Source: Girardia tigrina (taxonomy: Eukaryota). From it: a DNA stretch of 64,000 nt. The translations under genes and the position numbers were made by a program. The stretch is from the NCBI GenBank assembly GCA_001938485.1, contig MQRK01250243.1:1-64000 (forward strand). Direction: 5' to 3'. This document shows positions 12,342 through 60,936 of this stretch, piece after piece. Position 1 is the stretch's first letter, and every line of letters begins with the position of its first letter. Below the pieces are notes generated by a model. That model saw nothing but the letters and a program-made list of their open reading frames with translations, was not told the DNA's origin and did no database searches.

Positions 12342-12616
12342 AGGGGCGAAAGACTAATCGAACCATCTAGTAGCTGGTTCCTTCCGAAGTTTCCCTCGGG
12401 ATAGCTGGCGTTTATGATTCCGTAGTTGAACCTGGTAAAGCGAATGATTAGAAGTATTGGGGGCGAAATGCTCTCAACTAATTCTCAAACTTTAAATGGG
12501 TTCGAAGTGCGCCTCTCTTTAATATTTTTGTTGGAGGACTACATCGAATACAAATGCCTAGTGGGCCATTTTTGGTAAGCAGAACTGGAGATGTGGGATG
12601 AACCAAACATACGGTT
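12342..12616 (+). rRNA. 28S rRNA fragment (domain II pseudogene) inserted in Gypsy gag
   Basis: Conserved LSU blocks GGGGCGAAAGACTAATCGAACCATCTAGTAGCTGGTTCC, GGTAAAGCGAATGATTAG and CTAGTGGGCCATTTTTGGTAAGCAGAACTGG. Confidence 0.95.
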
Positions 12617-12974
12617 TTACTAATCGATATTACTAATTCAAGACTTGAACAAACTAATTATTTATCGTAAAGTATTGGATTCGGCAAATGCGTTCTACAA
12701 CAAAATCGAAATAATGGTCGATAGAATCTTAATCCATAAATGGAAAAAAAACATGAGTTAATGTCTTATTTTTTAACTCACTGTATGGAAGATGTATCAA
12801 GAGAAATCCAAATTTATATGCAAGAAGTCAAAGTTCCGGAAACGATTAAATCAGTAACTGAAAAAAATGGAAAACATAAAAATGACATACAGACCAAAGA
12901 AATTGCCCCAATCAACAGACAGAAGACGTTTGCGACGGTTCTGAAGGACCGTTCATCCTTCTCAATTCAATATA

Positions 12975-21498: not shown

Positions 21499-22712
21499 AA
21501 TACTACCAATATCATAATTACGATATATATTATTACTATTATAAATACATTTACAACTACTAATATTACATATATAANNNNNNNNNNNNNNNNNNNNNNN
21601 NNNNNNNNNNNNNNNNNNNNNNNNNNNNNNNNNNNNNNNNNNNNNNNNNNNNNNNNNNNNNNTGATATCCTAAATGTCCATGGCTATCGCATTTGGAACA
21701 TTTAACATATGGGCAATCTTTCCGAATATGTCCAACATCACGGCATCCATAGCAAATTCTTGATATTTCTGGACAATCTCGTCGAATGTGTCCAGATTTC
21801 CTGCAATGATAACAAACAAAAGATTTACCATCCTTTTCACCATTTTGTTGTATGGATCCTTTTGGAATTGTTGCATATCTTTTAAAATCTCTTGGATTGC
21901 TTCTTTGATTTTGAAAACTTTGGTGGATCGGAAATTGGGAACGGGCTTTCAAGACATTTGCAAAGGTTTTCTGTCTTTGAATATTAGCGATTTCATTGAC
22001 TTCCACTTCCGATTTAATAGTCTCCATCTTCTCAATAACACATTTTATTGCCTCTGGTGATTTTGCTTCATGCATTAAAATTTGAGTCTTCATATTGACA
22101 TCTTCCACACAATGGGTCAAAAAATAGGACATTAGTTCTTGCTTGTTCCATTTGTGATTCAGAATTTTATCGACCATTTTTTCCACTTTATTGAAAAATC
22201 TAGGAGCCGAGTCTGATCCTTTACGATAAGTCATCAGGTCTTGTAAATCTTGGATCAACGATGTTGGTTTTTTGAACGCTTTCAGTAATCGTTCTGCAAA
22301 ATCCACGATTTTCGAATCTACTGCTTCATATGTTGCGAGTAGGTCTCTTCCGATAAATGCTTTCACCATAAGCATTTGGATTGAATCATTGATTTGACAT
22401 ACTTCGAAAAATCGTGGACAATCGCCGATGAAGTCTTCTAGATCGCTGTTCCTATCGAATATCTTCGGTGCTAAATTATTAACGATGCTAGGCGTGGCCG
22501 CCATGTAAGAATTATCCAATAAAAATCGAAACTCAAAGAAATATTTATTTCCAATCAAAAATTAAATTAAGCGCGTAATTTATCATTACGTTGATTGATT
22601 TAAACAATTTCAGGAGTCTATATAATCATATAATGGATCCTTTATATATTTATAAATAGAGATATGAATTTAAATATAAATATGTATTGATATTAATTTA
22701 ATTATCATAACA
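19975..22712 (-). mobile_element. Gypsy LTR retrotransposon 2 (5' LTR, gag, protease, RT; 3' truncated)
   Basis: LTR TGTTATG..CTTACA 22712-22504, PBS TGGCGGCCAC, gag with three CCHC knuckles, LLDTGA, YLDD. Confidence 0.92.
21663..22504 (-). CDS. Gypsy gag (open into the assembly gap)
   Basis: MAATPSIVNNL..; CYHCRKSGHIRRDC, CYGCRDVGHIRKDC, CSKCDSHGH. Confidence 0.85.
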
Positions 22713-23879: not shown

Positions 23880-24107
23880 AAACTTGAAAAACGATGGCAA
23901 TTTTTTATTATAAACAAATAAACGCCATTTAAAAATATATTTTAGGATAATATATTTCGATAGTTTAACCGTCATCATCAGATCACTGATTATGTTCTTT
24001 TTTATTGCGTTTATATAAGAAAGGAATGATTATGCAATCACTTACGTAAGTCTAATCGAAAACTCTTAACAAATTAGTTGAGAGTGCTGTTTGAACATTG
24101 ATCCTAC
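23880..24107 (-). mobile_element. Penelope-like pLTR fragment
   Basis: Near identical to 38361-38600 and to the inverse of 39400-39587. Confidence 0.85.
23946..23984 (-). ncRNA. Minimal type I hammerhead motif (stem II mutated)
   Basis: GAU-CUGAUGA-U-GACGGU UAA ACUAUC-GAAA-UAUA-UU-AUC. Confidence 0.65.
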
Positions 24108-24680
24108 ATTGATCCTACTTTGCTACTACACATTAAATCAATTTAGTTCCACGACAAGAAAATTTTTCATGGACTTCCACAGTCATAACGTTTTAAATCA
24201 TCAATAGGAAATGAATCTTTTAAATAATAATAACTGTTTTCAAAGTGGACAATAAGATGATAACGAGCGGTAAAGTTGAGTAATATGTGGCAATGAATTC
24301 TATAACATTTATAAATTTTATTGAGTTTAAACTATTTATTAAAGCTTTGATTCAAATTGACTTTCGCAGAGATAATTGGAAATATATATTCTTTTACAAA
24401 ATCCCTACATCTAATATCATAAACTAGGGATAGCAGCAATAATCAAAATGCTTACAATACCAAATGAAGCAGAAAATCAGGTGATATGATGCAAAAAAGA
24501 GGGTGACCCTCTAAAACTTCAACTACTTAATTATATCTGTTAGGAATTAAAAATGTTAGGAAAATTTTTGAAAGAAGGTTATATTAAATATGTACAAATT
24601 AAAATTTTTATATAATTAAATATGTAACGTTTGAAAAAAATAAAGTTACTAAAATTAATAAGATCAATTAAATTGATAAT

Positions 24681-25454
24681 AAAATTTTTTTGAGAGTTTC
24701 AATATAATATAAAAAGTAAGAAAAAGTGTATAATTTTTATGTGAAACGATTTTAAAAAAGTAATAAAATTAAATGAAACGATTAAATATTTTAAAGTGTT
24801 ATCGTAATTTAAAATTGATTTATAGAAGTAATAGAAAAATCAAATATGAATATTTATAAGTATTTTTATCTATATCGGTTTAAGATTTATAAAACAAATT
24901 GTTTCTGAAAAAAAATTAATAAATTTGTTTAAATATTAGATTTAAACAATTGTTTTGGTAGTATAATAAAAGTTTTATTGTCTGCTACTAATAATTCCGC
25001 AGATGTTCCAAGAACCACTAATAATATCAAAAAGAAATTTTTAATGAAAAAATGAAAACAATTATCATAATCTAGATTTCTCAGTTAATCCTAAAAGTTT
25101 AAGTAATTAATATAACGTTTGGTAGCCGATTTCACTTTTTAAATCTATTGTTCTTATATATAATGTCTTAGCAAATACGAAAAAACTGAAGGTATGAAGG
25201 TATAAAAAATTTTTGAGAGTTTTAATATAATATAAAAAGTAAAAAAAGTGTATAATTTTTATGTGAAACGATTTTAAAAAAGTAATAAAATTAAATGAAA
25301 CGATTAAATATTTTAAAGTGTTATCATAATTTAAAATTGATTTACAGAAGTAATGGAAAAATCAAATATGAATATTTATAAGTATTTTTATCTATATCGG
25401 TTTAAGATTTATAAAACAAATTGTTTCTCAAAAAAAATAATAAATTTGTTTAAA
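24681..25454 (+). repeat. Direct duplication of about 250 bp
   Basis: 24681-24933 near identical to 25204-25454. Confidence 0.9.
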
Positions 25455-26897: not shown

Positions 26898-27454
26898 AAT
26901 ATGAATATGTTAAATATTATAAATATTTATATAATGCTATTTTAAAAAAATAATAATTAATATCAATTAAATGATTATTATTATTTTTATAATTTCATTA
27001 TATAAATAACTAAATATATCTTTAAAGATGGATATTACAGATTTCATTAATCTATCTATTCAAATAATTTCCAGTTGAAATTTTAAAGAGACTTAACCAC
27101 TCTCTGAAATCCCCATCTGGACCTGGAGACACAAGAACTGAAAACTGCGGATATCGGTATTTCGTACTAAACAGATTGTCACACTGCATATGACGAAAAG
27201 CAATTGAAATTGCTTATTCCAGACAAGTCAAATGATATCCAGACTGAGGGTCGGTCGACAACTCAGATCGAGGACTTGCTAGACGACATTCATTAAGTTT
27301 TATTAAACTTTATTAAAATATACTTTTGTAGAAACCTTCCCTCGAATATCTATAAGTTCCCAAATTTTGTTTGCAACCGGTGTGATATTGAGTCTTGTAA
27401 ACGCAAGTTTAATATTTTGAAAATATAATTTGATTAACGCTTCTTTTATATAAT

Positions 27455-27497
27455 TATTGAACATGTTTCGATGTTTCAGACATCATCGTTAACAATA
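27455..27497 (-). ncRNA. Degenerate minimal hammerhead motif downstream of the PLE ORF
   Basis: UAUUG-uUaACGA-U-GAUGU CUGAA ACAUC-GAAA-CAUG-UU-CAAUA; two core mismatches. Confidence 0.6.
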
Positions 27498-29130
27498 TTG
27501 GAACATTTTAATATTTGTATATTTGAATTTTTTTTCATAAAGAAATATAATTTTAAAATTTTATTAATTTTAAATCTTAAAAATTATTATGAATATTATA
27601 ATTTATTAAAATATTATTGTATAATAAGGACAAAAAATATTTTAATTAAAAATTATAAGTTTTGAAATGGCCTTACTTTGCCCATTCTGAATGTTAATTG
27701 ATAGGTTGTAGTGTATTATTAATGGAGATTCACAAAAATGCCGTTCGTATTGTGAATCGAATCCCTTTTGTAGAAAAGAAAAATCACCTTTTGAAATGGA
27801 TGAGGTTCTATCCGTATAACACAAAAATGGTCAAGAACCTTACTCGATTGACCCTTTTGCGAGGGCTCACTAATCCGAATTTGGAGATGACGATTTGTCT
27901 CTCGTGAAAATTAAATTTATGTACTCGATTAGCTTGCAATCCACGAACTGTTTTCGATTTATTTGAGGGAAAACTTTGAACTTTGGATGGGACAGAGACT
28001 ACTTTGGCACTACTTATTGTTCTACAAATACTCTTCTTAACAGCTCTAAATCCTTCAGAATATGATATTTTAATGGTTTGTTTGTTTTCTTCAATATTTT
28101 CTTCTTTTAATTTTTTCTTAACCCGTGCATCTGTAAATAATTTGTCTAATGTTAACCTAATGTTATCTGTAACCTATTTGCTTGTTTGTATACATATTGT
28201 CCCTCAAGCGCCCTCTAAGTATATTTAAACCCTGATTTGCGATTTTAAAATTTGACGATAAATTCCAAACTCTGTGAACAAGGCCTTTTATCATACCATC
28301 TCTATATAATTTTTCTCCAAAAAACTCTGTGGTGTTGTGTAAAAACCTATATCTGTTACCTTTCTGAATTATTCAGTTTTATAACGTCCATTCATCTTAG
28401 TGGCAAGAATGTCCAGAAATTAATCATGATGTATAAAACATTGAAACATTTTCAATAATTATATAAAAGTAGCTTTAATTAAATTATATTTTCAAAATAT
28501 GTTTAATACAAAGACAAACATTTGTATATAACAGTATTTTGTCTCCAACCTGACTGACAGCAAGTGTGCTTTAAAAATTTGTTTTGGTGTACTGCCCAAG
28601 GTAAATTTTGTTAGATTGATTTTATCGATTTCATAGTTTTTAGAAATGGTATTCTGAACATGTTCAAATAATGTAATTAGGTGATCAAAATATAAATTTG
28701 TCACCAATCGGAGAATAGCAGAAAAATATTAAACCCACTAAATACTTATAGGCAATATATTTTAGTAAATAGAAAAAATCATTAAAAAAATACTACACAA
28801 ATAAAAAAATCCATTGATATTAAAAAATATCGTTCGGTACTGTCCCCAGGTTTCCTTAGAGACTGATCAGTTGTAGCAGAGACACAGCTGATTTGAAGCA
28901 CGAGTATTTCGTACTGGACCCAGTTATAAATATTGTTCAGACAGATCATCATTTGGTTCAAGTGAAAGTCTTTTCTTATCACAAATATCGTGTCAAATCA
29001 CATAAACGATTACAAAACTCATTTCTTTACAATCTAGTAAAAATATTCAAATCGTTTCACAATTGTAATTTTACAAAAAATCAAATAGTTTCCCAATTGC
29101 AATCCCACAAAAACAAAAACTGAAATCATT
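27455..29130 (-). mobile_element. Degenerate Penelope-like retroelement (RT remnant, thumb, GIY-YIG)
   Basis: RKVTDIG..YRDGMIKGLVHRVWNLSS..DNMY (PLE thumb), ISYSEGF linker, C-terminal DFSFL..ERHFCES..INIQ; 5' boundary approximate. Confidence 0.8.
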
Positions 29131-29440
29131 AATCAGATTTTAAAGTGATTTAATTCATTTAATTTTTGTGCCTTTGACAAAGCTATCGCTGATTGGTTCA
29201 CCAAATATTCTCCAATTAGGCCTATTACAGACACACCAGCTCATTTAAGAATCAACTGAATCATATAACTGGATTTTGATGATCATCACTTTCCCAAACA
29301 AAGAAGTCTTGTTTTGGATTCAAATCCTTGACAACAAAAATTCAAATTATTTTATTTTAATTTAAATATTTAATTAATTCTTTAATTTCTTATTTTTTTA
29401 ATTAATCATATTTCATAGTATATATATATATATATATATA

Positions 29441-31305
29441 GTCGTGGCCATAATTTACCGGCCACCCTTGCATTTTAAAGAAAATTAATATCTACGTTCA
29501 TATGTGTGTAAGTGCATGTAAATAATGTTCTTAACCGACATCCAATAAGAATACAGCTTTAGAAGCATACCCAATATATATTTGTGTCAAATTTTTGTGA
29601 CTATTCCAACATGACTGGCAACCAACTTTTACCCACTCTCAAGGCACAAATCGTCGCTTTACACGACACTGGAGTCTTGAACCGTACAATTGCCTTGCTA
29701 TTCAATATTAGCCGCGCTGAAATAGCTGACACTCTTCGTCTTCATCAAGCCACCGGTGCCTTTGCCTATACGAAACGCAGTGAAAGGCCGCATATCACAA
29801 GAAAGGTGACAGATCGAGCCATTTTGAGATCCTATAAGATCAATCCATTTGCTGGTTCCCGTGCAATTCAAGCTGATCTTCCAGCTAACAATGATAAATT
29901 ACCTAGTGCACGAATCATTCGTCGACATCTGGTTGAAGGACACTTTCGATCGTACAAGCCTGCCAAGAAACCGCGTTTATCGTCGAAAAATATCCGTGAT
30001 AGGCTTGCGTTTGCAAAAGCTTACCAATATTGGACAATTGATCAATTGCGTTCGATGATGTTCAGTGATGAAACCACAATCTTTCAGCAAGACATATGGA
30101 TCCGCACGGTGCGCCGACCGTCTGGTCACTGCTTTAGGCTACAGTACACTGTTCCCATTGTGATTTTGGGCGCAATTGCTGCCGGAGGTCGCTGCGGTCT
30201 TTGCTTCTGTCCCAAGGGAACTACTATCGATTCGCATGTGTACAACGGCATTCTTCGCGATAAGGTCCAACGCTTCTTTCAAATGTGTCAGTGCAATTAT
30301 TTCCAACATGACGGGGCTCCATGCTATCAGTCGCGACTAAACAAAACTTGATTAGAAGCAAACGAGATCAACGTTCTGGGTCCATGGCCTGGCAACTCAC
30401 CTGATTAATCACTGATTGAAAATTGTTGGATAATATATATTATAAAAGCCCAAGTCACTGCCTGCCTGCCTGCTTCACTAACGCACTTACGTAATAATTG
30501 CTGACGTAATAATAGTATTATTTGTTGAAAAATAAATGTGAAAAAATATCAATTTATTATGAAAAATTCTGTATTTAATGTGAAAAAATATTAATTTATT
30601 ATGAAAAATTCTGTATTTNNNNNNNNNNNNNNNNNNNNNNNNNNNNNNNNNNNNNNNNNNNNNNNNNNNNNNNNNNNNNNNNNNNNNNNNNNNNNNNNNN
30701 NNNNNNNNNNNNNNNNNNNNNNNNNNNNNNNNNNNNNNNNNNNNNNNNNNNNNNNNNNNNNNNNNNNNNNNNNNNNNNNNNNNNNNNNNNNNNNNNNNNN
30801 NNNNNNNNNNNNNNNNNNNNNNNNNNNNNNNNNNNNNNNNNNNNNNNNNNNNNNNNNNNNNNNNNNNNACCTTACAGCATTAGTGAGGCAGTGAGGCAGG
30901 CAGTGAGTGACTTGGGCTTTTATAATATAAAAAAAATTGAACCCCCGGCAAGAGAGGGCCGCGAAGCGGGCCGAGCGCGCTAGTAGTGAAAGAAAAGGTT
31001 GCTAAGCATGCCCCCACATCATATGATGATCTACTTGACGTGATTAAACGTGTTTGGGTACAGGAGATCAACACGGAACTCACTGACAATATAATTGCGT
31101 CAATGCCACGCCGATTGGTAGAAGTGATTAATGCAAAAGGTGGTATATACAAAGTACTAGTGGAAGAGTATTTGAACTATGCATCCATGTCTGTATTCTA
31201 CTTATAATTTGTATGTACTGAATATATCCTTAATACTTTGTTACAATATCAGTTAGTCAAAAATATCATTATTTTTAGGAGTTGCTGGTGAATTATGGCC
31301 ACGAC
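29441..31305 (+). mobile_element. Tc1-family transposon with DD35E spacing, pseudogene
   Basis: TIR GTCGTGGCCATAATT(T/C)ACC within (TA)n; FSDE, FQHDGAPC, WPGNSPD*SLIENCW; C-terminus resumes at 30984. Confidence 0.92.
30434..30983 (+). mobile_element. Non-autonomous Helitron nested in the Tc1 transposase
   Basis: Inserted at A|T with no TSD; 3' hairpin GGCCGCGAAGCGGGCC then CTAG; subterminal inverted repeats TATAAAAGCCCAAGTCACT; spans a gap. Confidence 0.8.
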
Positions 31306-32254
31306 TATATATATATATATATATATGCAATCAAAACCCTAATAAAATAGATCGATAATGTTCTTAAAAATGATTCTTTATTTGGAGCAAGTCGGAGGCA
31401 AAACTATAAATAAAGTTGATAATGTACTATAATTTTAATTGTAATTCTGAAAATAATATCGTATTATAAAAAAATTTCGATAAAAAATTGAGAAAGCCTC
31501 CATCTAGAACTTTTGAAAAGTGCAGTTTCCTATGTCACTTATGTCTTGAATTGGACCTGACTAACAGTATAGAAAAAATTTATTGGCAATCTTTCAGTGA
31601 AAAGGAAATGATTTATTAGGATATGGAGAATTAATTGGTCTTTGGTTTGATTTCCTTTTTTAAATATGTGTAATTTAAGATCATTTATTTTATTAAATTA
31701 TGATAAAAAATAAAATTGTTCTATATCTATTGTTTGTAAAAAAATGGACTGTGAAATAGTAATTATTAATTATCGTAATTAAATAAAAATAAAAGTTATT
31801 CACTTATTTTTAATTATTATTTAATCATTCTTAAAATTTATATCATATTAAAATATCTAACATTTTTTTAATATTATTTATCAATAAGTATTTTGCATTT
31901 TAATTAAAATTTTAATTATTAGATTTTCGAAAATATAATGTATTTAATTAATTTTAACCAATCATAAACGAAAACAATTTCTTTTTAAAGTTTTATTGAG
32001 ATTATAATATTTATAAAAAGAAATTTTGTCGATTAATATTTTTCCGTATTAATAAAAAAATAGTTAAAATGTTGGGAATTAATTAATTTTAAATATCTCT
32101 AAAAATATATTCTATCAAGTAAAAATTAAGCCCCGGTGGAGTAATTTCACTTGTGTAATTTTAAGTTGTTTACACTTTATTTGTATTACAATTATTGTGA
32201 TTTTTCCTAATTAAGGTCTTATAACTTACGTTTAATATAATTTACTAGAGTTAA

Positions 32255-35573: not shown

Positions 35574-38100
35574 ATGAAATTAATGAAATTACTAATAGAA
35601 TATAAAAATATATTTATGACGGACAAATGGGATATCGAGAAGACCAAAATAACTAAGCATAAAATTGAAACGCAAGGAGAACCAATACTGGTAAAACCGT
35701 ACCGACAGCCAAGATACTTTGAAGAAAAACTAGATGATATTATCAAGAATTATGAGGAAAATGATATCATTGAAAAATACAGTTCACCGTAGAACTTTCC
35801 CCTAGTGTGCGTATGGAAAAAGACAAAGTGGATATTCGAGTATGGGTTGAATTTCGACAATTAAATAAAGTCACAATCAGACCAGCATTTCTAATGCCAA
35901 ATGTAGAAGAAATGCTAAATACATTAAATGGAGCGAAGTACTTTAGCACGATCGACTTGGGAAACGCATATCATCAAGTTGAATTGGAGAAAGATTCAAA
36001 ATTAAAAACTTCATTTTCGACAAAGAACGGCCAATATTGTTTTAAAAGAATGCCATTCGGAATTGCATCTGCCCCAGTGACATTTCAAGAACTAATGACA
36101 AGAGTGTTAGGAGAATTAAACTGGAAAGAAGCAGTTGTATACCTGGACGACATGCTAATCTTCGCAAAAGACAAAGAAGAACATTTCAGACAAGCCGAAC
36201 ACATATTTCAAAAGATTAAAGATTCGGGGCTTCGGATAAACCCTGAAAAGTGCCAGTTCCTGGTAGAAAATACAAAATTTTTAGGATATGTCATGAACAA
36301 AGATGGTCTAGAGACGGATAAAACGAAAATTGAAACAATCAAAAAATTTCAAAATCTTTCATGCATTAAACATTTAAGAAGTTTCTTGGGGTTAAAGAAC
36401 TATTATAGAAAATTTTTGAAGGATTGTGCAAAATATTCAAAAATACTGGAATGGCTATGTGGAAAAAATAAAGATAAAAAATTGACATGGACAAAGGAAT
36501 GTGACGAAGCATTTCAGACATTAAAAGATAAAATGACAAAAACACCGATCTTAGCATATCCAGATTTCGAAAAGGAGTTTATACTGGATACAGACGCCAG
36601 TTTTGATACAATCGGGGCAGTACTGGCACAGAAGGATGCATACGGAAGGGAAAGAGTAATCGCATATGGATCCCACAAGATGAACAAACACGAACTGGGA
36701 TACTGTATTACAAGAAAGGAATTATTAGCAATCTATTACTTCACCCAACACTTCAAACATTTCTTATATGAAAAGAAGTGTCTACTTAGAACGGAGCATA
36801 AGGCCATCAAATTCATGATGACAACGAAGAACCCAATAACTCCACAATTCCAAACATGGATAAACTTCCTTAGTGGACTAGACATGAGGATGGAATACCG
36901 CAAGGGCGAAAAACACACTAATGCAGACACAATGTCTAGAAATACACGTAAACTATGTGTATAATGTCAGACAATGCACGATGACGCTAAAAAAGGAAAA
37001 GTTAAAACTAGAATCCTTGCCTTAACTGAAGATTTAGAAGAGTTCATTTGGCAAACGAATGATAAAGAAATAGAACAGATTAAAGAAAATATTAGAATGG
37101 GAAATGCAAAAGAATGGTTTCTAAAAATCAATATCGTGACGAGAAGAGATAACAAATATTGGATCCCTCTGAAGAAGAGAACATACTTTATAGAAGATAT
37201 ACATAAAATGTTTTGCCACGCAGGAAGTAAGAAAGTTGACAATTACATAAAAGATGACTTCGATATCTATGAAATGAGACAACAAATAAAGAACATCGTG
37301 CAAAGTTGCGCAAACTGCCAGAAAAGGAAGACACTGTCGGCAAAAACGAAAGAGAAACACATTAAACAATCTGCCGACGAACAATTTCAAAAATTTTACA
37401 TGGACTTTTGCGGACCATTCAGGACTATGAATGGATACCAATATATTTTAGCAATAATCGATCAATTTAGTAGGTACATCAGCTTGACCGCAGTGGCACA
37501 CCAAGACGAGAAAACTACACGGAAGGTAACATATGATAAATTGATTTGGAAATTCGGACCACCAAAGGAGATACACGTTGATAGAGGGAAAACTTTTGAA
37601 TCAGCACTCTTTAAAGAAACGACGAAAAGATTTAAGACGGAGATAGTCTATTCAAGTCCTCATCACCACAACACTAACGGAATCATTGAAAGACAATTCA
37701 GAACAATAAGAGACTTCATAAATATACGATTAAAGGATGAAATGCATAGAGATTGGGTACAAATGTTGGCAGAAATAGAATTCATGTTAAACGGTACAAT
37801 TCAAGCAACAACTGGATATCTCCAGCCGAGATAATCTTCGGAAGAAAACTACGACATTGATGGAAAACTACAGCAGAAGGAAAAAGTGGAGAAAAAGAAA
37901 ATAAAAATATAATTGAAACAAAGCAAATATTTCAGGTCGGAGATAAAGTCTTGATAAAGAAAGTTAATACATTAAAAGATGATGACTGTTATATGGGACC
38001 AGCTAAAATTATAAAGCAAAGACACGAAGGAAGTTATGAGATACAACTAAAGGACGGCAGGATTTTGATCAGAAATGTAGAATGACTAAAGCCATTTAAA
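35574..38100 (+). pseudogene. Gypsy pol (RT-RNase H-integrase) with stops and frameshifts
   Basis: ORFs 35574-35792, 35807-36964 (YLDD, TDAS, NAD), 36974-37834 (HHCC, MDF..VDRG..NGIIER). Confidence 0.92.
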
Positions 38101-38418
38101 CCGAGGGGATGTAAGGAATATTTTAAATTGTTCGAATGTGTAAATATATGGATGCTATATGTTGATTTAAGTATGTTGAATTTAGAAGGGTGATTCTCCC
38201 ACCCAAATAGAAATTGGTATTTTTTATTAAATTTAAAGGATTGACTATTCGAACATAATTAAAATAGTAATTTGATAAGTTCATATTTTTAATTTCAAAT
38301 TAAAATTAAGTTTAATAATTTTTAGTAAAATTTAAATAAAATGTATTTTTAATAATTTGAAAAAAGATGGCAATTTTTTATTAAAAGCAAATAAACGCCA
38401 TTTAAAAATATATTTTAG

Positions 38419-38457
38419 GATAATATATTTCGACGGTTTAACCGTCATCATCAGATC
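38419..38457 (-). ncRNA. Minimal type I hammerhead ribozyme
   Basis: GAU-CUGAUGA-U-GACGGU UAA ACCGUC-GAAA-UAUA-UU-AUC; perfect 6-bp stem II, palindromic stem III. Confidence 0.8.
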
Positions 38458-38818
38458 ACTGATTATGTTCTTTTTTATTGCTTTTATATAAGAAAATGAA
38501 TGATTATGTAATCACTTACGTAAGTCTAATCGAAAACTCTTAACAAATTAACAGAATTAAATTAATTAAATTAGTTGAGAGCGCTGTTTGAACATTGATT
38601 TTAGGATCACATGATCTTATCAACAATGCTTCACATGACACTCGCTCCCAATAATTTTTAAAATGCTTGCACAAAATCTTAAAATCATTTATGCTCATAT
38701 TACATTTACACGTTTTTTTATGCTCAGCAATATTACTCTTTCCCCCTTTTTGATTGTGTTCTTGGACTCGTTTGCAGAGATGACGGGCAGTCTATTCGAT
38801 GTATGTGGCATTGCACCC

Positions 38819-39152
38819 TGTTAAGAACACCAACATGGCTTTTCAAACTTTTATTTTCATTACAATCAGAATTGTCTTTTGGACAACTCTCAGCGAAACT
38901 CTCGTCATTCGACATCGTTCTAAATTGATAATTTTNNNNNNNNNNNNNNNNNNNNNNNNNNNNNNNNNNNNNNNNNNNNNNNNNNNNNNNNNNNNNNNNN
39001 NNNNNNNNNNNNNNNNNNNNNNNNNNNNNNNNNNNNNNNCTAAAATATCAATTTTCCATCTGGGTGGGAGAAACACATTTCCAAATACTAAACTCAACAT
39101 ACAAAATTCAACAAACCAATTTCAACATACCAAATTTAAAATATTCCTCACA
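38819..39152 (-). mobile_element. Solo LTR inside the PLE GIY-YIG region
   Basis: TGTGAGG..CTTAACA; 5-bp TSD CACCC (38814-38818, 39153-39157); spans a gap. Confidence 0.88.
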
Positions 39153-39517
39153 CACCCATTACATGTGTATTGATAAACAATGTCCGAACACAATCCTAAA
39201 GGAGTATGTGATTTATTGCAAAACATATTCTCAACTTTAAATGATTGAGAAATAATTTTTAAATTTAAAATGTTATTTGATTTCATGATCGAATTCTTGA
39301 GGTGTTTAAAACCCTCGGAGTAAGGTAAGCTTAGAGTATACCAGGGTGTAAAGCAGAATGTCATGTGAAGCAATGTTGATAAGATCATATGATCCTAAAA
39401 TCAATGTTCAAACAGCACTCTCAACTAATTTGTTAAGAGTTTTCGATTAGACTTACGTAAGTGATTGCACAATCATTCATTTTCTTATATAAAAGCAATA
39501 AAAAGAACATAATCAGT

Positions 39518-39556
39518 GATCTGATGATGGCGGTTAAACCGTCGAAATATATTATC
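39518..39556 (+). ncRNA. Minimal type I hammerhead ribozyme
   Basis: GAU-CUGAUGA-U-GGCGGU UAA ACCGUC-GAAA-UAUA-UU-AUC; G.U wobble preserves stem II. Confidence 0.8.
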
Positions 39557-39792
39557 CTAAAATATATTTTTAAATGGCGTTTATTTGTTTTTAATAATTT
39601 GATGACATTTTTCTTATTTTGGGATTTATTGAGAAATGGTAAAAATTATTATTTTTTAATTAATATTTTTAGAGGTAAAATATTTTAAAAAATAACTTAG
39701 GAAAATTGTTCGAATAATCATGATTAAAAACAGAAATAAGAAAACCAATTAGAACGATGGCAAACGATGAAAGACCTTCTGAGAATTGTAAG

Positions 39793-40533
39793 TGTTGGGT
39801 ATTAAATTATCTTTAATTTAAATATTCACTTTTTAAACACAAATCTTTATTCTTTAATCGTAAATCTTTATTCTTTAATCAATAATCTTTAATCTGAAAT
39901 CTTTAATCTTTGATCTGACTCCAATTAATCAGAAAGGACTTCCAACATAAATATATGAATAATGAACACAAATTCTTTATGAAACTTTATTTCGAATAAC
40001 AAATATTAACAAGTCAAAATAATAATAACTCAATTCTTGATGACAGAACACAAACACAAAACAATATTTCGTACGAGTTAATAGATTACAGTAAAAACTG
40101 TGAATCTCCCAAAACGAACGAATGTTTAAAATTAAATTAAACCTTCTTCTCCCATATGGGGTACTTATGGTTTAACAATATTTTAAAAGAATAAAATAAA
40201 AATAAAATAAATTTTGTATTTACGTTACTTGTTACAGAGATTTCTTCTTTTAGTAAATTTTTTGCAGATATTTTTGGGCAAACTATAACTAAATTTGCTG
40301 CTGTTTATATAACAGTTTTCATCAGCCTTGAAAATTGGTGAAATAAAACAGAGACTAAAATATTTATAATTTTTGATGAAGTAAAACAAACATTTATAAT
40401 TTTTAATTCCAAGTTTTGTTAAACTAAATATTATTTTGTTTGAAATTAATAATTTTACTAAAAGAATTATTTAAAAATTTCCTAAGTAAAATTTTATCAA
40501 AAGTGTTCACACATATTTTTCAAAGCCCTAACA
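39793..40533. mobile_element. Solo LTR of another family inside the Gypsy 3 LTR
   Basis: TGTTGGG..CCCTAACA; 4-bp TSD TAAG; host LTR rejoins on both sides. Confidence 0.8.
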
Positions 40534-41269
40534 TAAGGACTAAAATGTAATTGCAATAAAAAATCAAATGAGACTTGTCTCAATGTTCTTAATAACCCTA
40601 ATGAAAATTAACTAACTCATAATATAAAGTATTACTGGTGTACGTTGAAAAGCAAAGTATTCAGAGAAACCTTTGAAAGGGTAATTGCTCTAATTAGAAA
40701 TTTTCGATAAATTGATATTTTTTACATTTTATTTTGTTTGTAAATTCATATTTTTCTTTCTACTTATTTAGCACTCGATAATTATTTAAAAAACATACTC
40801 GATAAATATTCAAGTAACAATGCAAAATAACTCTTTGAACAAGTAATTTCTTGTTTTTACTTGTGGAAATTTTCTTTAATATTTATGTGGGATAGATAAA
40901 ATAATGGATATATTACTTTTGGCATTGATACTATTTCGAGGATGTCTTTTTGCAAATCTGAATTAATGTTTCAAATTTTTTTCTATGTAATTTTTATAGT
41001 TTTTACTTAATTTGGAAAGTTTCACAATTTAAGTTGAAAATGTAAAATAAATATTTAACATCATTAAATAATTTTTAAATATTTTTACTCATCGATGGAT
41101 TTAAATACAAATTTCATAAATGTCACGAAATAAGGAAATCGGAATAAAATAAAAACTCAAAGGGAAATTAGTTATATTTATTTATAATACTGCTACGCTC
41201 GTTTTTTCTGTGAATTTCACTCGATTTAAGAAATTCTACTCACATAAACAAATTATCTTAATTCATTTA

Positions 41270-45772: not shown

Positions 45773-46264
45773 TGTGAGGAATATTTAAAATTTGGTATGC
45801 TTAGTTTAGTATTTGGAAATGTGTTTCTCCAACGCAGATGGAAAATTGGTATTTTTTATGTTCGCGACGAATAGCTATTCGAGTATAATTTGCATTTTAA
45901 ATTACATAAGATATAAAAAAATTTAAATATTAAATCGTTTAAAATTTGAATATTAAAAATTTTAATAAAGTAAATAACTTTTTTCATTATTTTTAAATTG
46001 ATTAAATAAATGTTTTTCTTTATATAAAATCATTTTTTTGTGAAATTATTAGCAAAATTATAAAAGTAGAATTTCTAAAATAAAATCTGAAAATAATTTT
46101 AAATGAAAATTTGTTCAAATAATTGTTTATGAAGAAGAAATTAACAAAAACTTATATATTAAGTGAGACGTCAAATTATGAAAGCTTGGCTGAGAATTGT
46201 CTCAAAAGCAATTCAAACTGTGATGAAAATAAATGTGTAAAAACCCATATTGGTGTTATTAATA
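45773..46264 (+). mobile_element. Solo LTR (Gypsy 3-related)
   Basis: TGTGAGGAATA..GTTATTAATA; 5-bp TSD TTTGT. Confidence 0.85.
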
Positions 46265-52631: not shown

Positions 52632-52779
52632 TATGAGGAATATTTTAAATTGTTTGAATGTGTAAACGTAGTGATGCTGTATGTTGATTTAAGTATGTTG
52701 AATTTAGAATGGTGATTCTCCCACCCTAAATGTGATTGTAATAAAAATTCAAACGAGACTTGTCTAAATGTTCTTAATA
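52632..52779 (+). mobile_element. Internally deleted solo LTR (Gypsy 3 family)
   Basis: Both LTR ends present; TSD GCCAT/GCTAT. Confidence 0.75.
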
Positions 52780-53127: not shown

Positions 53128-55041
53128 GTATTTTTGTATTATTAAATTACAGTTTTTTTATATATATTTATGCATAAATTTTGTTAGATATTTCGAAAAC
53201 TAATTTTTATATCACCTTTACACATATATGCTGTATGGGGTTCGGATTCAAAAGTTAAACTAATGACACTAAATTTTATTTCTATAGCAATTAAAATTTT
53301 TAAACAAATATTTTCTAGAAACTTTCGCGATTTCTTTTTACAGAAACCATTATAAATAAAAATAGATATAAATATAGATATTGTTATTTCCTTAATTAAG
53401 AATTTAACTTTATACTTTTTTTGTTAAAATTAAGCTATTAAAATTTGCCACTAAGTTTTTGTTGCATCTTTAATTAAATTTCCATAAATTGAATCGTTTC
53501 TCAATTACATTTCCCCATTCTATAAAATAACATTTTCATTTTGTTTTCATAATCGTTTAAAAATTGTTTTTAGTTTTGGTAAAATAACGTTTTGTTTTTT
53601 TTTATTATGTACTTTATTTATTTTGCATGTTATTATGTTTAATAATTGTCATAGGCAATTATGAATTACGAAATATGAATTTAAAAAAATCAAAAAAACA
53701 ATCGATTTTTTAACTCAGTTAATGAATTATTTAACATACTGAGAATATTTTCTCGATCCAATAATCTTGTCGTTGGAAATACAATTTATTATTTTCGTGG
53801 CTGTAATCGAAAATATTGTTTAACGATCTGAAATTATAACAAAAAAAACTGAAGTCGAGAACAACTGATTACAAATCAAGACAAAATCGAATCTAGTTTG
53901 ATCTCTTACCTATTTGTACAATCTATTTGTACTGTATTCACTCAGTCAAGAGATTTTTACATCTGACGTTTGCGCTTTATATCGTAAAGAAAAAGAAAAA
54001 AAAGATTTCAACCATTCTCTTATAAAGAATAATTCCGGTTTCAAACTATTAGCGAAGTATTTGTTGATTTGATTTATTCTTACGTTATTTGTTGATAATA
54101 CTCAAACGACTGTGTTTTTTTGTTAAAGAAAAAATTCATTTTTCTTGTTAAAAGACAGTTGTTTAAACGTTTTGTTCTTAGCCCTGTACTAAATTCACTC
54201 AATAAAATGGTTTAGTCAATTTAGTACAGCCTTTTTTTTCTTTTTATCCATATTATTGTTAAAACCTCAAATTTGCATCTCAGATCTATAGACAAATTTG
54301 GGGTTTTACAATCGTCTTTAAAATCATAAAGGTTTTTTATTAAAATTTTGTCACAAAGATTTTATTTCATATTTTATTAAATTTCCATTTTATTTTCCAT
54401 TTTCATTTTAACACAATTACATTTTTAATTAACATTGTAACGTACATTTTCATTATAATAAAATTGCATTTTATTTGTTTCAATTTAACAGTTTTTGAAT
54501 TACATCTAGATTTCGATAAAATTACATTTTCAAAAAATTAAAATTTCATTTTCATTTATTTCAATTTAATCGTTTTTTAATGAAAGTTATATTTTCATTT
54601 ATTTCAAAACAATTATATTTTAATTTTAAAAATGATTTTTGATTTTTTTTATATACATGGTATTATATATGTGGTATATATGTGGTATTCCATCACTTCT
54701 AAGTATAATCACAATTCCATCACATAAAATTTTAAATAAAAAAATTTAGATAAAATTTACAATTTTCGTCGAAATCTGTTGTTACTCGTTCAATAACGAA
54801 ATTAAGTAAAGTGAAAGATTGAAGTTAATGCGTGCTATGTATTCACATGAATATCACTTCCATCACCTTAAGGCATAATGTCATTGTGAAATAGATATTT
54901 CAGGTAAAATAGTATATAGCTTTAAAATATAAATATAATTTTATTTGACGATTTGTCTTAGCAAAATGCAGACTTAAGTATATTTAATATTTAACTGTAA
55001 AATGATCATTGGTTATAAAACACAAGAAACTTATTTTGGTG

Positions 55042-55561
55042 TATGAAGAAAATTTTAAATTGTTTGAATGTGTGAATGTATTGATGCTGTATGTTGATTT
55101 AAGTATGTTGAATTTAGAATGGTGATTCTCCACCCAGATGGAAATTGGTATTTTTGGTATTCTATTCGAACACAATTACAATAATAAATTGATAAGTTTA
55201 TATTTTTAAAATTAACAGTTAAAATTAAGTATAATATTTTTGAAAAAAAGAAAAGCATTTAATTAGATATAAATAAAATTTAAAAAATTAAATTAAATTC
55301 ATTTTGAACAATTTGATAACATTTTTATTATTTTCAGTTTTTATAAAGAAATGGTTAAAATTATTATTTTTAATTAATTTTTTTTGGTATTAAATATTTT
55401 AAAAAGATTTGGAAAAATTTTTCGAATAATCATGATTAAAAATAGAAATAAAAAAACAAGTAGAACAATGACAAATGGTGAACGATCTTCCGAGAGTTTT
55501 GATGACTTTAAATGTAATAAAAATAAAAATTCAAATGAAAATTGTCTCCATGTTCTTAACA
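55042..55561 (+). mobile_element. Solo LTR (Gypsy 3 family), 520 bp
   Basis: Collinear with the reconstructed 38110-40594 LTR; ends CTTAACA; degenerate TSD TGGTG/CAGTG. Confidence 0.85.
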
Positions 55562-58704: not shown

Positions 58705-60201
58705 GTATGTTTTCATTTAAAGATTTTATTAAGTTCTGTGAACACTAGTTTATTTTTATTGATAAAGAACTTAAATGCTTTTATATTTTCATCACAATAA
58801 GAATTGTAAAAATGACTATTATAAAAGATAAAAATTTAATAAAAAATTGTTAAAGAGAAAATTTTAATTGATGTTGCGGAAACCGTGCCTCCATTTAATA
58901 CTGAGAACCAGAAAGAATTCAGTTTTTCTTTTACTTAATTCTGATTTAAATTCATTAACATAATCAATAGAGTGGCTCAACGGCCGATTGACGATGGTTT
59001 CCAATAGAGATAACGATTCAGCACCGATCCAATCGGCATTAGAAAACACTTTTTACGAAAAGTTTGAAATTGAAATATGAGCTCCATTAAATATTTTATC
59101 GGTATCAAATGATATATATCTTTTTTTTTTAATTAGTTAATCGCTCAAATTTTCACACATTATAAATATTTTTTCAAACGATTTTTGTTCCACCATTTCC
59201 GTTACATGATACATATTTTTAACAAAAAAATTTCAAAATTGGAATTAAAGACTATATTTTTTTAATTGAAACAACATTTATTTACACTTAATTTTTTAAC
59301 ACAAATTTCAATTTTTCCTTTTTTAACACAAAAATTGACCCAAAATTGTAATTGGACACTTCACAATCGAACTCGATTTATTAAACGCGCCAAACAATCA
59401 CGTATGCAACATTCGATTAAATAATCGTAAATTTTCAATGATTTTCACTAATTATTTTAAACAAAAATTTTCCTTTCAAGGTCATCAAAATTAATCGATT
59501 TACAATAAAAAATGAACAATAATCATTTAAATAGAAATACCATCACGAAACCATATGAAAGTGATGGTTTAATTATTTAAATTAAATTTAATTTAATATA
59601 TATATATATATATTTTATTTAATCTTTTTAATTTAATTTTCTTATTTTTTTACTTTATTTAAATTAACTTGATTTAATTAATTGTTTTGTCAGTTAATTA
59701 TTTATATTTGTAAGGGGTTCTTTTTAGTGAACTGTAAATTTTTGATATTTTTAAATTAAAAAACATATTTATTTATATATATATTTATATATATATATAC
59801 ATATATATACATCGATATTATTTATATTTAGAATTTTAAAATCTGGTTTATGTAACTGAAATATTGTTCCTCATAAATTTGTTTGAATAATGAAAGTTGT
59901 ATTAGAAATAAAGTTTTGTGTTAATGACAACGTCTTTTGATCAAGAACACAATAATATTATTTAATTTATTTATATATTTTCCCTAAAACTAGAAAATGT
60001 TCGTTCAATTATCTAATTTTTCGGTCCAATCGGTTTGATGCAAAGAAAACTGTTTAATTTTTTTCTGTTATCATAATATTACTTTTATCGTTGTTAAAAT
60101 TATTACTATCAAACATAAATATATAATTCTAATATATATATATATATATATNNNNNNNNNNNNNNNNNNNNNNNNNNNNNNNNNNNNNNNNNNNNNNNNN
60201 N

Positions 60202-60249
<48 letters not shown>

Positions 60250-60936
60250 TAATTGACCGAACATTTTCTAGTTTTAGGGAAAATATATAAATAAATTAAA
60301 TAATATATAATATAATTAAATAATATATATATATATTTATTTTTTATATATTTTTTTTTTATTTTTTATTATTTATATTTTTACTTATTTTTTAATGACG
60401 TTTAATACAAAACCAAAATAAGAAGAACGTATTTATATCTTCTGCTGACGTTCATTCTAATTTGGTTATATTTCGTTGACTTTAGCTTTTACTAAAATGA
60501 CGAAGTTTCGTGGTAATATAAACGCCGAATACTTTTCAAATACTAGTTAATTTACAATAATTAATTTTATATTGTAAAAATAGTTTTCTTTTATAAAATT
60601 TGAAGCCAACTAAAATTTATTAATTTCGATGGTTTAACCATTATTGTCCGAAAAAATGAATTTTTTAAAAACGACAATTACTTGTGTAGTGCAGTTAGTG
60701 ATTACGTAATCAATACGTCATCAGTACATCATTTAAAAAATTGTCAAAATTAATAAACTTTATTTGGCTTCAAAGTTTTTTTATTTGAAAACTTATCAAT
60801 TTGATTTAACTTAATTCACAATTATTTTCTTTATCAATTTTTATTTATCTGTTAAATATTATTTATAATAAAATGGCTTTTATTATATAATTATAGTAAC
60901 TTATTTATAAATTTTTAATTTATAGCTTAATTTTAG

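Follow-up and report, generated by a model that had tools for sequence, protein, structure and literature searches.

A Penelope-like element (PLE) insertion at 38361-39587 in Girardia tigrina DNA is bracketed by two hammerhead ribozyme motifs that lie on opposite strands and face outward. The question raised by this locus is whether the pair forms a unit of its own, in which transcripts of either strand would carry a ribozyme and fold back into long double-stranded RNA (dsRNA), as an earlier note on this DNA had proposed, or whether it is a trace of the way in which the element was inserted. Below, the window denotes the whole stretch of 64,000 nucleotides that was analysed, which overall is AT-rich eukaryotic DNA containing many decayed mobile elements (Pfam matches to RT, integrase, DDE and Tc1-type domains). 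Very probably, the locus results from one retrotransposition event of a Penelope/Poseidon-type PLE, with the paired hammerheads as a by-product of the insertion mechanism and the locus probably inert. It is real but ordinary, namely one dead PLE copy, every structural part of which has already been published. The locus itself is minor; it is useful as a worked example in which an empty site fixes the target-site duplication, the tail and the microhomologies at the ends. Comparisons with published systems refer to the sections of the cited papers that were consulted.

The insertion occupies exactly 38361-39587 and is flanked by identical 15-bp repeats at 38346-38360 and 39588-39602 (plus strand); the first 10 nt of the right repeat are also pLTR sequence (microhomology). 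One sister LTR, located at about 55040-55560, has no interruption; it contains the 15-bp site once (near 55303-55317) and aligns to both flanks of the insertion. Since this sister LTR represents the empty site, the repeats are a target-site duplication and the limits of the insertion are exact; they agree with those given in the earlier note. The host sequence belongs to a decayed element of the Ty3/gypsy type: the 5' portion of its 3' LTR lies at 38110-38345 (plus strand; match to the LTR at 55048-55559), and this LTR continues at 39603-39787 and then at about 40543-40592. A purine tract at 38103-38109 lies just ahead of this LTR; such a tract and TG...CA ends are the rules by which LTRs are recognised. 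The host element, identified by RT, RNase H and integrase Pfam matches at 35774-37831, lies on the plus strand and is directed into the locus; its pol contains stops, and no match to its upstream LTR was found within the 64-kb window. The possibility that the hammerhead is part of the gypsy LTR itself, as in an LTR retrozyme, was ruled out because the sister LTR contains no hammerhead. Downstream of the PLE, the host LTR is broken again by a further insertion at 39798-40542, which includes short tandem repeats (39832-39915).

The body of the PLE lies on the minus strand. Using tblastn, two pieces of its ORF were identified by comparison with P0002, a relative that contains RVT_1 and GIY-YIG domains (Pfam). 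The first piece (39153-39346, minus strand) extends from the RT-EN linker to the first GIY-YIG motif and CxxC (P0002 residues 308-373, 68% identity, E 3e-22), and the second (38550-38818, minus strand) covers the remaining GIY-YIG domain (residues 372-453, 73% identity, E 1e-34). The P0002 residues map in order, 308-373 to 39346-39152 and 372-453 to 38818-38573, with an overlap of two codons. The CxxC between the motifs and two histidines, which are features of the CCHH endonuclease, are readable in the translation of the remnant. Neither piece alone gave a GIY-YIG Pfam match at E up to 1, so the identification as a PLE rests on tblastn with the relatives. The telomerase-related RT that precedes the endonuclease in such ORFs is present in the relatives P0002 and P0008; from this copy it was lost by 5' truncation, and only about 150 codons of the ORF are left. 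In addition, the second motif is altered in the second piece and a premature stop comes after it; there is also an insertion of 23 nt close to the end of this piece. Given the altered motif and the stop, the copy is evidently dead, being 5'-truncated with its endonuclease inactivated. As for its type, the RT-EN linker, read by eye in the first piece and in P0002 residues 308-373, lacks an additional CX2-5CxxC finger. This finger marks Neptune and Nematis (PMC8557442), and by the definitions in that paper a linker of the kind read here points to an EN+ PLE of the Penelope/Poseidon type.

The two ends of the element are inverted copies of one pLTR. The 3' pLTR of the body (38361-38643, minus strand; inverted match to 39356-39597) contains the end of the endonuclease ORF, the UTR, the hammerhead and the ORF start (first ~30 codons), and carries a tail on one side only, at about 38361-38388. 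At the 5' end of the body lies an inverted, 5'-truncated pLTR copy without the tail (39352-39587, plus strand; junction within about 39347-39358), which repeats, in inverted orientation, the last 31 ORF codons plus the pLTR. The alignment of the two arms consists of 234 matching columns, 13 mismatches and 24 gap columns, with perfect runs of 57, 41, 30, 29 and 27 bp, and the tail is 17-31 nt long. Counted from the AUG, the left arm and a solo third copy of the family end at +88 to +92 and the right arm at +61 to +71, whereas in PAc, a Poseidon element of Anolis carolinensis, initiation is at +111-118 (PMC11167929); in a further difference, the locus copy is dead. The tblastn match to P0002, the inverted arms and the 15-bp duplication bear out the Penelope-like insertion with inverted pLTRs described in the earlier note.

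All of this corresponds to the typical PLE layout, which comprises an inverted pLTR, a target-site duplication, a 31-bp one-sided tail and a pLTR containing the first ORF codons (PMC3846280; the same layout is given in PMC8557442). Here, too, the pLTR is made up of ORF end, UTR and ORF start, and the inverted 5' copy, the duplication and the one-sided tail are all present. The closest systems compared were the inverted-pLTR insertions of Pen2/Pen2a in Adineta vaga and of Penelope in Drosophila virilis (PMC3846280, PMC2377424, PMC8557442). The locus differs from these in that only ~150 ORF codons are left, in the absence of a direct 5' pLTR and in the presence of a nested LTR; its target-site duplication is 15 bp long as compared with 8-10 bp in the A. 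vaga examples. We infer that a single event placed a 5'-truncated PLE copy on the minus strand in an AT-rich site of the gypsy LTR, that the same insertion added the usual inverted 5'-truncated pLTR at the 5' end together with the 15-bp duplication, and that the nested LTR and the inactivating changes would have been acquired afterwards. The difference of 5% between the arms could reflect two templates or two events. Because the hammerhead belongs to the pLTR, an inverted duplication of the pLTR yields two outward-facing cores without selection. In support of the by-product reading, a second, unrelated PLE family in the window shares the inverted layout (27412-28500).

The hammerheads themselves are well formed. 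In the standard numbering scheme, the left motif (38419-38457, minus strand) has C3 at 38454 and a predicted cut after U17 at 38422, and the right motif (39518-39556, plus strand) has C3 at 39521 and a predicted cut after U17 at 39553. Each combines a CUGAUGA core and GAAA with a stem II of 6 bp capped by a 3-nt loop, a stem III palindrome (AUAUAU), an AUU triplet and a stem I of 3 bp; the second pair of stem II is A-U in the left copy and G.U in the right. The positions of both cores inside the inverted pLTRs, as listed in the earlier note, were confirmed, as were the 6-bp stem II with its A-U to G.U change, the short stem I, the palindrome and the triplet. An extra U between A9 and G10.1 in both cores had been overlooked. 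The hallmarks of the PLE class are all found: a CUGANGA...GAAA core, the extra nucleotide at 9/10.1, a G10.1-C11.1 pair, a palindromic stem III too short for a monomer, an NUH triplet and a short stem I. Folding prediction gave a stem III probability of 0.0 in the monomer, and with the palindrome and the short stem I this upholds the assignment of each pLTR motif to minimal type I hammerheads of the dimer kind. An alternative monomeric fold, in which a second AUAUAU located 11 nt downstream serves as stem III, was rejected by eye because stem I would begin with a U-U mismatch; a hairpin predicted at this second AUAUAU hides GAAA.

The descriptor for minimal hammerheads matched only these two sites in the 64 kb, or three when one stem II mismatch was allowed (the third with C3 at 23981). 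Among 300 dinucleotide shuffles, 7 contained any descriptor match, and 1 a match whose stem III was palindromic and whose stem II had at least 6 bp. The Infernal search suggested earlier was negative: no Rfam hammerhead family reached its gathering score in the window or appeared among the 7 matches with E<=10 in 38100-39900. At the gathering level, the only Rfam match in the whole window was an rRNA fragment; weak sRNA and snoRNA matches in 38100-39900 were far below the cut-offs and were dismissed.

The motifs share with the metazoan PLE hammerheads of Cervera and De la Pena 2014 (PMC4209133) the CUGANGA core and the additional nucleotide ahead of G10.1, as well as a long stem II, a short stem I and a stem III that is palindromic; the locus differs in the family sequence, and the ribozyme here is a prediction from sequence. 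In the rows for Drosophila rhopaloa, D. elegans and D. ficusphila, the same combination of AUAUAU and AUU is found. AUU, which had been called an uncommon cleavage site, occurs in 5 of the 56 published motifs in Fig. S3 of that paper, and U at position 17 occurs in 24 of the 56, both tallied by eye from extracted text in which the column layout is only partly preserved. With five such cases in the class, the predicted AUU site is ordinary among PLE hammerheads. The paired arrangement is not unusual either: the same paper reports pairs of minimal hammerheads that lie on opposite strands at distances of 100-700 bp, and the legend of its Fig. S4A presents a PLE that is truncated at the 5' end and has there a second hammerhead on the other strand, as at this locus (PMC4209133). 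Non-LTR retrozymes (bioRxiv 10.64898/2026.07.22.740005) likewise contain a type I hammerhead related to pLTRs; these, however, are head-to-tail repeats of non-coding units, and the locus was excluded from this class because its arms are inverted and enclose an endonuclease remnant.

Among the 247 aligned columns of the arms 13 differ, yet both cores are perfect. Whether this indicates selection was considered with the third copy, a solo pLTR fragment of the same family (23884-24102, minus strand; C3 at 23981) in which stem II has one broken and one wobble pair. Across the three copies, with 25 gap columns set aside, none of the 24 columns of the core and stems I and III varies as compared with 7 of 158 outside (p 0.60), and 3 of the 39 columns of the whole motif vary (p 0.42 against the same 7 of 158), both being comparisons without power. 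The core is thus conserved to no greater degree than the remaining pLTR, a finding that the earlier note had named, jointly with a lack of cleavage even as a dimer, as evidence against its idea; a three-copy comparison without power would neither support nor refute ribozyme function in the parent element. Intact cores at this arm divergence appear to be within chance expectation (p 0.60). The A-U to G.U change, too, loses its force as a sign of selection, as it is one single change and the third copy carries a stem-breaking one. In stem II of that copy, CG has become TA, a double change as expected from CpG decay on both strands, and there is an 11-nt direct repeat at the 5' junction of the copy.

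The core also overlaps the probable start of the ORF. A probable start codon of the ORF at 39527-39529 (plus strand; 38448-38446 in the left copy) is formed by A9, the extra U and G10.1, and is followed by an open frame to the end of the pLTR. In PAc of A. carolinensis, the AUG has the same position relative to the hammerhead (PMC11167929). When the 31-residue pLTR peptide was compared by local alignment with the first 70 residues of 43 relatives (those of at least 750 aa among 116 new protein matches), the mean score was 20.1 versus 18.7 for an internal control, with no convincing single match. The pattern of Met, five residues and K-Y-I/V, which is how GAAA and the palindrome would be read, was found at 2 of the 43 N-termini and at none of 1072 internal methionines; the pattern was chosen post hoc and both matches fall within one three-member subclade, so that it may be taken as a hint of overlap between ribozyme and start codon. 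The N-termini of the full-length relatives P0060, P0065 and P0067 resemble the GAAA-palindrome codons, two in the frame of the window and one in another, which hints that such an overlap may be common to the subclade.

If the core doubles as coding sequence, the motif might be a relic, or might be kept as an ORF start and splice acceptor and not as a ribozyme. The overlap of the core with the probable AUG and first codons, and the predicted hairpins that hide both halves of the core, are in its favour. For PAc, moreover, insertion in vitro was unaffected in catalytic mutants, and none of the RNA-seq reads had its end at the cleavage site (PMC11167929). We nevertheless consider this explanation unlikely, because coding does not demand all of the hallmarks together, including the palindrome and stem I, and because related motifs do cleave: PLE-type motifs weakly as dimers (PMC4209133; dimer cleavage is also touched on in the review PMC6765202), and a related hammerhead only with the protein of its element (PMC11167929). 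We infer from this literature that, in the parent element, a weak, dimer-dependent or protein-assisted hammerhead would most likely trim a tandem precursor RNA at the 5' end of the ORF.

The acceptor just mentioned belongs to a candidate spliceosomal intron. In the left pLTR this is 61 nt long (38459-38519, minus strand), with a GTAAGT donor and a CAG acceptor 4 nt before C3; in the right pLTR it is 60 nt long (39457-39516, plus strand), and its last 5 nt are complementary to C3-U7 of the core. A GT-AG candidate of 60-61 nt ending 4 nt ahead of C3 is found in all three copies, and intron acceptor, ribozyme core and start codon are packed into about 20 nt. Retained spliceosomal introns occur in some PLE families; Penelope of D. 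virilis has a comparable 75-bp intron in the promoter region, which ends at helix I (PMC4209133, PMC2377424). This packing raises the possibility that the hammerhead is gated by splicing. Unspliced RNA would be the form that is retrotransposed, its template protected by pairing of the last five nucleotides of the 5'-UTR intron with the catalytic C3-U7, whereas removal of the intron would lift the block, and a cut nine codons into the ORF would decapitate the mRNA. In silico, U4 is unpaired with a probability of 0.01 in the presence of the intron and of 0.75-0.85 after its removal, and an acceptor-core hairpin is predicted for both the left and the right copy. The cost of the hammerhead fold falls from about 11.4 to 9.0-9.3 kcal/mol in two copies, but in the third goes from 9.5 to 9.6. 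UCAG or UUAG at least 3 nt before the core occurs in 10 of the 56 published motifs (PMC4209133), an eye tally over rows that are not independent, with ~4 expected by rough arithmetic. Against the idea, C3 stays paired after intron removal, the second hairpin still hides GAAA, and any acceptor that ends in CAG complements CUG by accident. We regard gating by splicing as quite doubtful. No description of acceptor-core pairing was found in the sections of the PLE hammerhead literature examined; the dimer-cleavage paper PMC5785218 may cover it. If true, this gating would tie intron retention, an open puzzle of PLEs, to the ribozyme, and in any case the packing of intron, core and AUG suggests a test of the purpose of PLE hammerheads and of intron retention.

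We now return to the original proposal, that transcripts crossing the locus carry a ribozyme and form long dsRNA. In read-through RNA, the duplex between the arms is predicted at about -360 kcal/mol, so the dsRNA half of the proposal is plausible; inverted Penelope copies in transgenic Drosophila were reported to produce siRNAs that map to the inverted regions (PMC3681739). The other half, a usable ribozyme, is not supported by the prediction: the probability of stem II is 0.79-1.0 in an isolated pLTR but 0.00 in read-through RNA of either strand. Whichever strand is transcribed, the complementary arm precedes the hammerhead, and the hammerhead is wholly paired in the duplex even if the RNA ends just past the cut site. 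Dimer-type action by the paired cores is precluded in cis, because the cores lie on opposite strands and never occur together on one strand.

Penelope of D. virilis has an internal pLTR promoter (PMC2377424). RNA that starts within the locus, from such a promoter or from the nested LTR, would extend outward and contain a single core without the complementary arm. In this RNA stem II is predicted to form, and the core would be hidden by hairpins: in pLTR RNA of the left and right copies, two predicted local hairpins hide CUGAU and GAAA. When the hammerhead fold is forced on the dimer, the energies are -12.6 and -13.8 kcal/mol, which is about 28 kcal/mol less favourable than the minima of the dimer (-40.2 and -41.4). 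Note that nearest-neighbour energies omit core and tertiary stabilisation as well as help from proteins, so inertness is a prediction. Taken with this in mind, the hammerhead at this locus is probably inert; read-through RNA would bury it in the arm duplex, which would be a source of small RNAs at most.

A retained functional unit, in which the ribozyme cuts read-through RNA at the 3' arm and so frees a defined long hairpin for small RNAs, is very improbable. The long duplex on either strand, the siRNAs from Drosophila (PMC3681739), the orientation of the host gypsy element into the locus and the two intact cores would suit such a unit, but the hammerhead is fully duplexed even in RNA ending just past the cut, the second core is antisense, the pol of the host element contains stops, no upstream LTR of that element was matched in the window, the loop contains an LTR and an N gap, and the core is not conserved in excess (three copies, no power).

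The nested LTR belongs to an LTR retrotransposon and arrived later in the PLE ORF (38819-39152, minus strand); it has TG...CA ends and a 5-bp duplication (38814-38818 and 39153-39157). Inside it lies a gap of 104 N (38936-39039), the flanks of which match one LTR copy, 45789-46262, in order. By simple arithmetic, this copy implies that about 290 nt are missing, so that the gap is ~190 nt short, and a longer element may hide there. With the gap and the nested LTR between the arms, the assembled arm spacing may differ from the true distance. An assembly artefact, in which two repeat-ended contigs were joined across the gap, is hardly credible: the short gap and the trouble that inverted PLE structures cause in short-read assemblies (PMC8557442) would allow it, but the ORF remnant is colinear and stays in frame from one side of the nested LTR to the other, which means that the layout did not arise by joining in the assembly, and the 5-bp and 15-bp duplications match across the gap, with the host LTR resuming where it stopped.

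Several other elements were observed in the window. The second PLE family (27412-28500, minus strand) is more decayed, consisting of an RT end and a GIY-YIG remnant (tblastn) with its own inverted pLTR pair; both of its hammerhead-like sites have lost CUGA, and the left one keeps stem II, GAAA and a different 6-nt palindrome. A weak tblastn match to the PLE endonuclease motif at 976-1065 (E 0.26) is possibly another remnant. Solo or partial LTRs of two related gypsy-type families are located at 45789-46262, 52632-52779 and 55040-55560. A eukaryotic LSU rRNA fragment (12383-12679, 166 bits), in which a long stretch is missing relative to the model, is adjoined by gypsy gag-like sequence that matches 21939-22395. 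Terminal inverted repeats surround a Tc1-type transposase with an N gap at 29411-31335, and a 63-bp inverted pair surrounds another gap at 59955-60306 in a MITE-like arrangement. Finally, a 255-bp direct repeat (24679-24933 and 25202-25454) is 96% identical.
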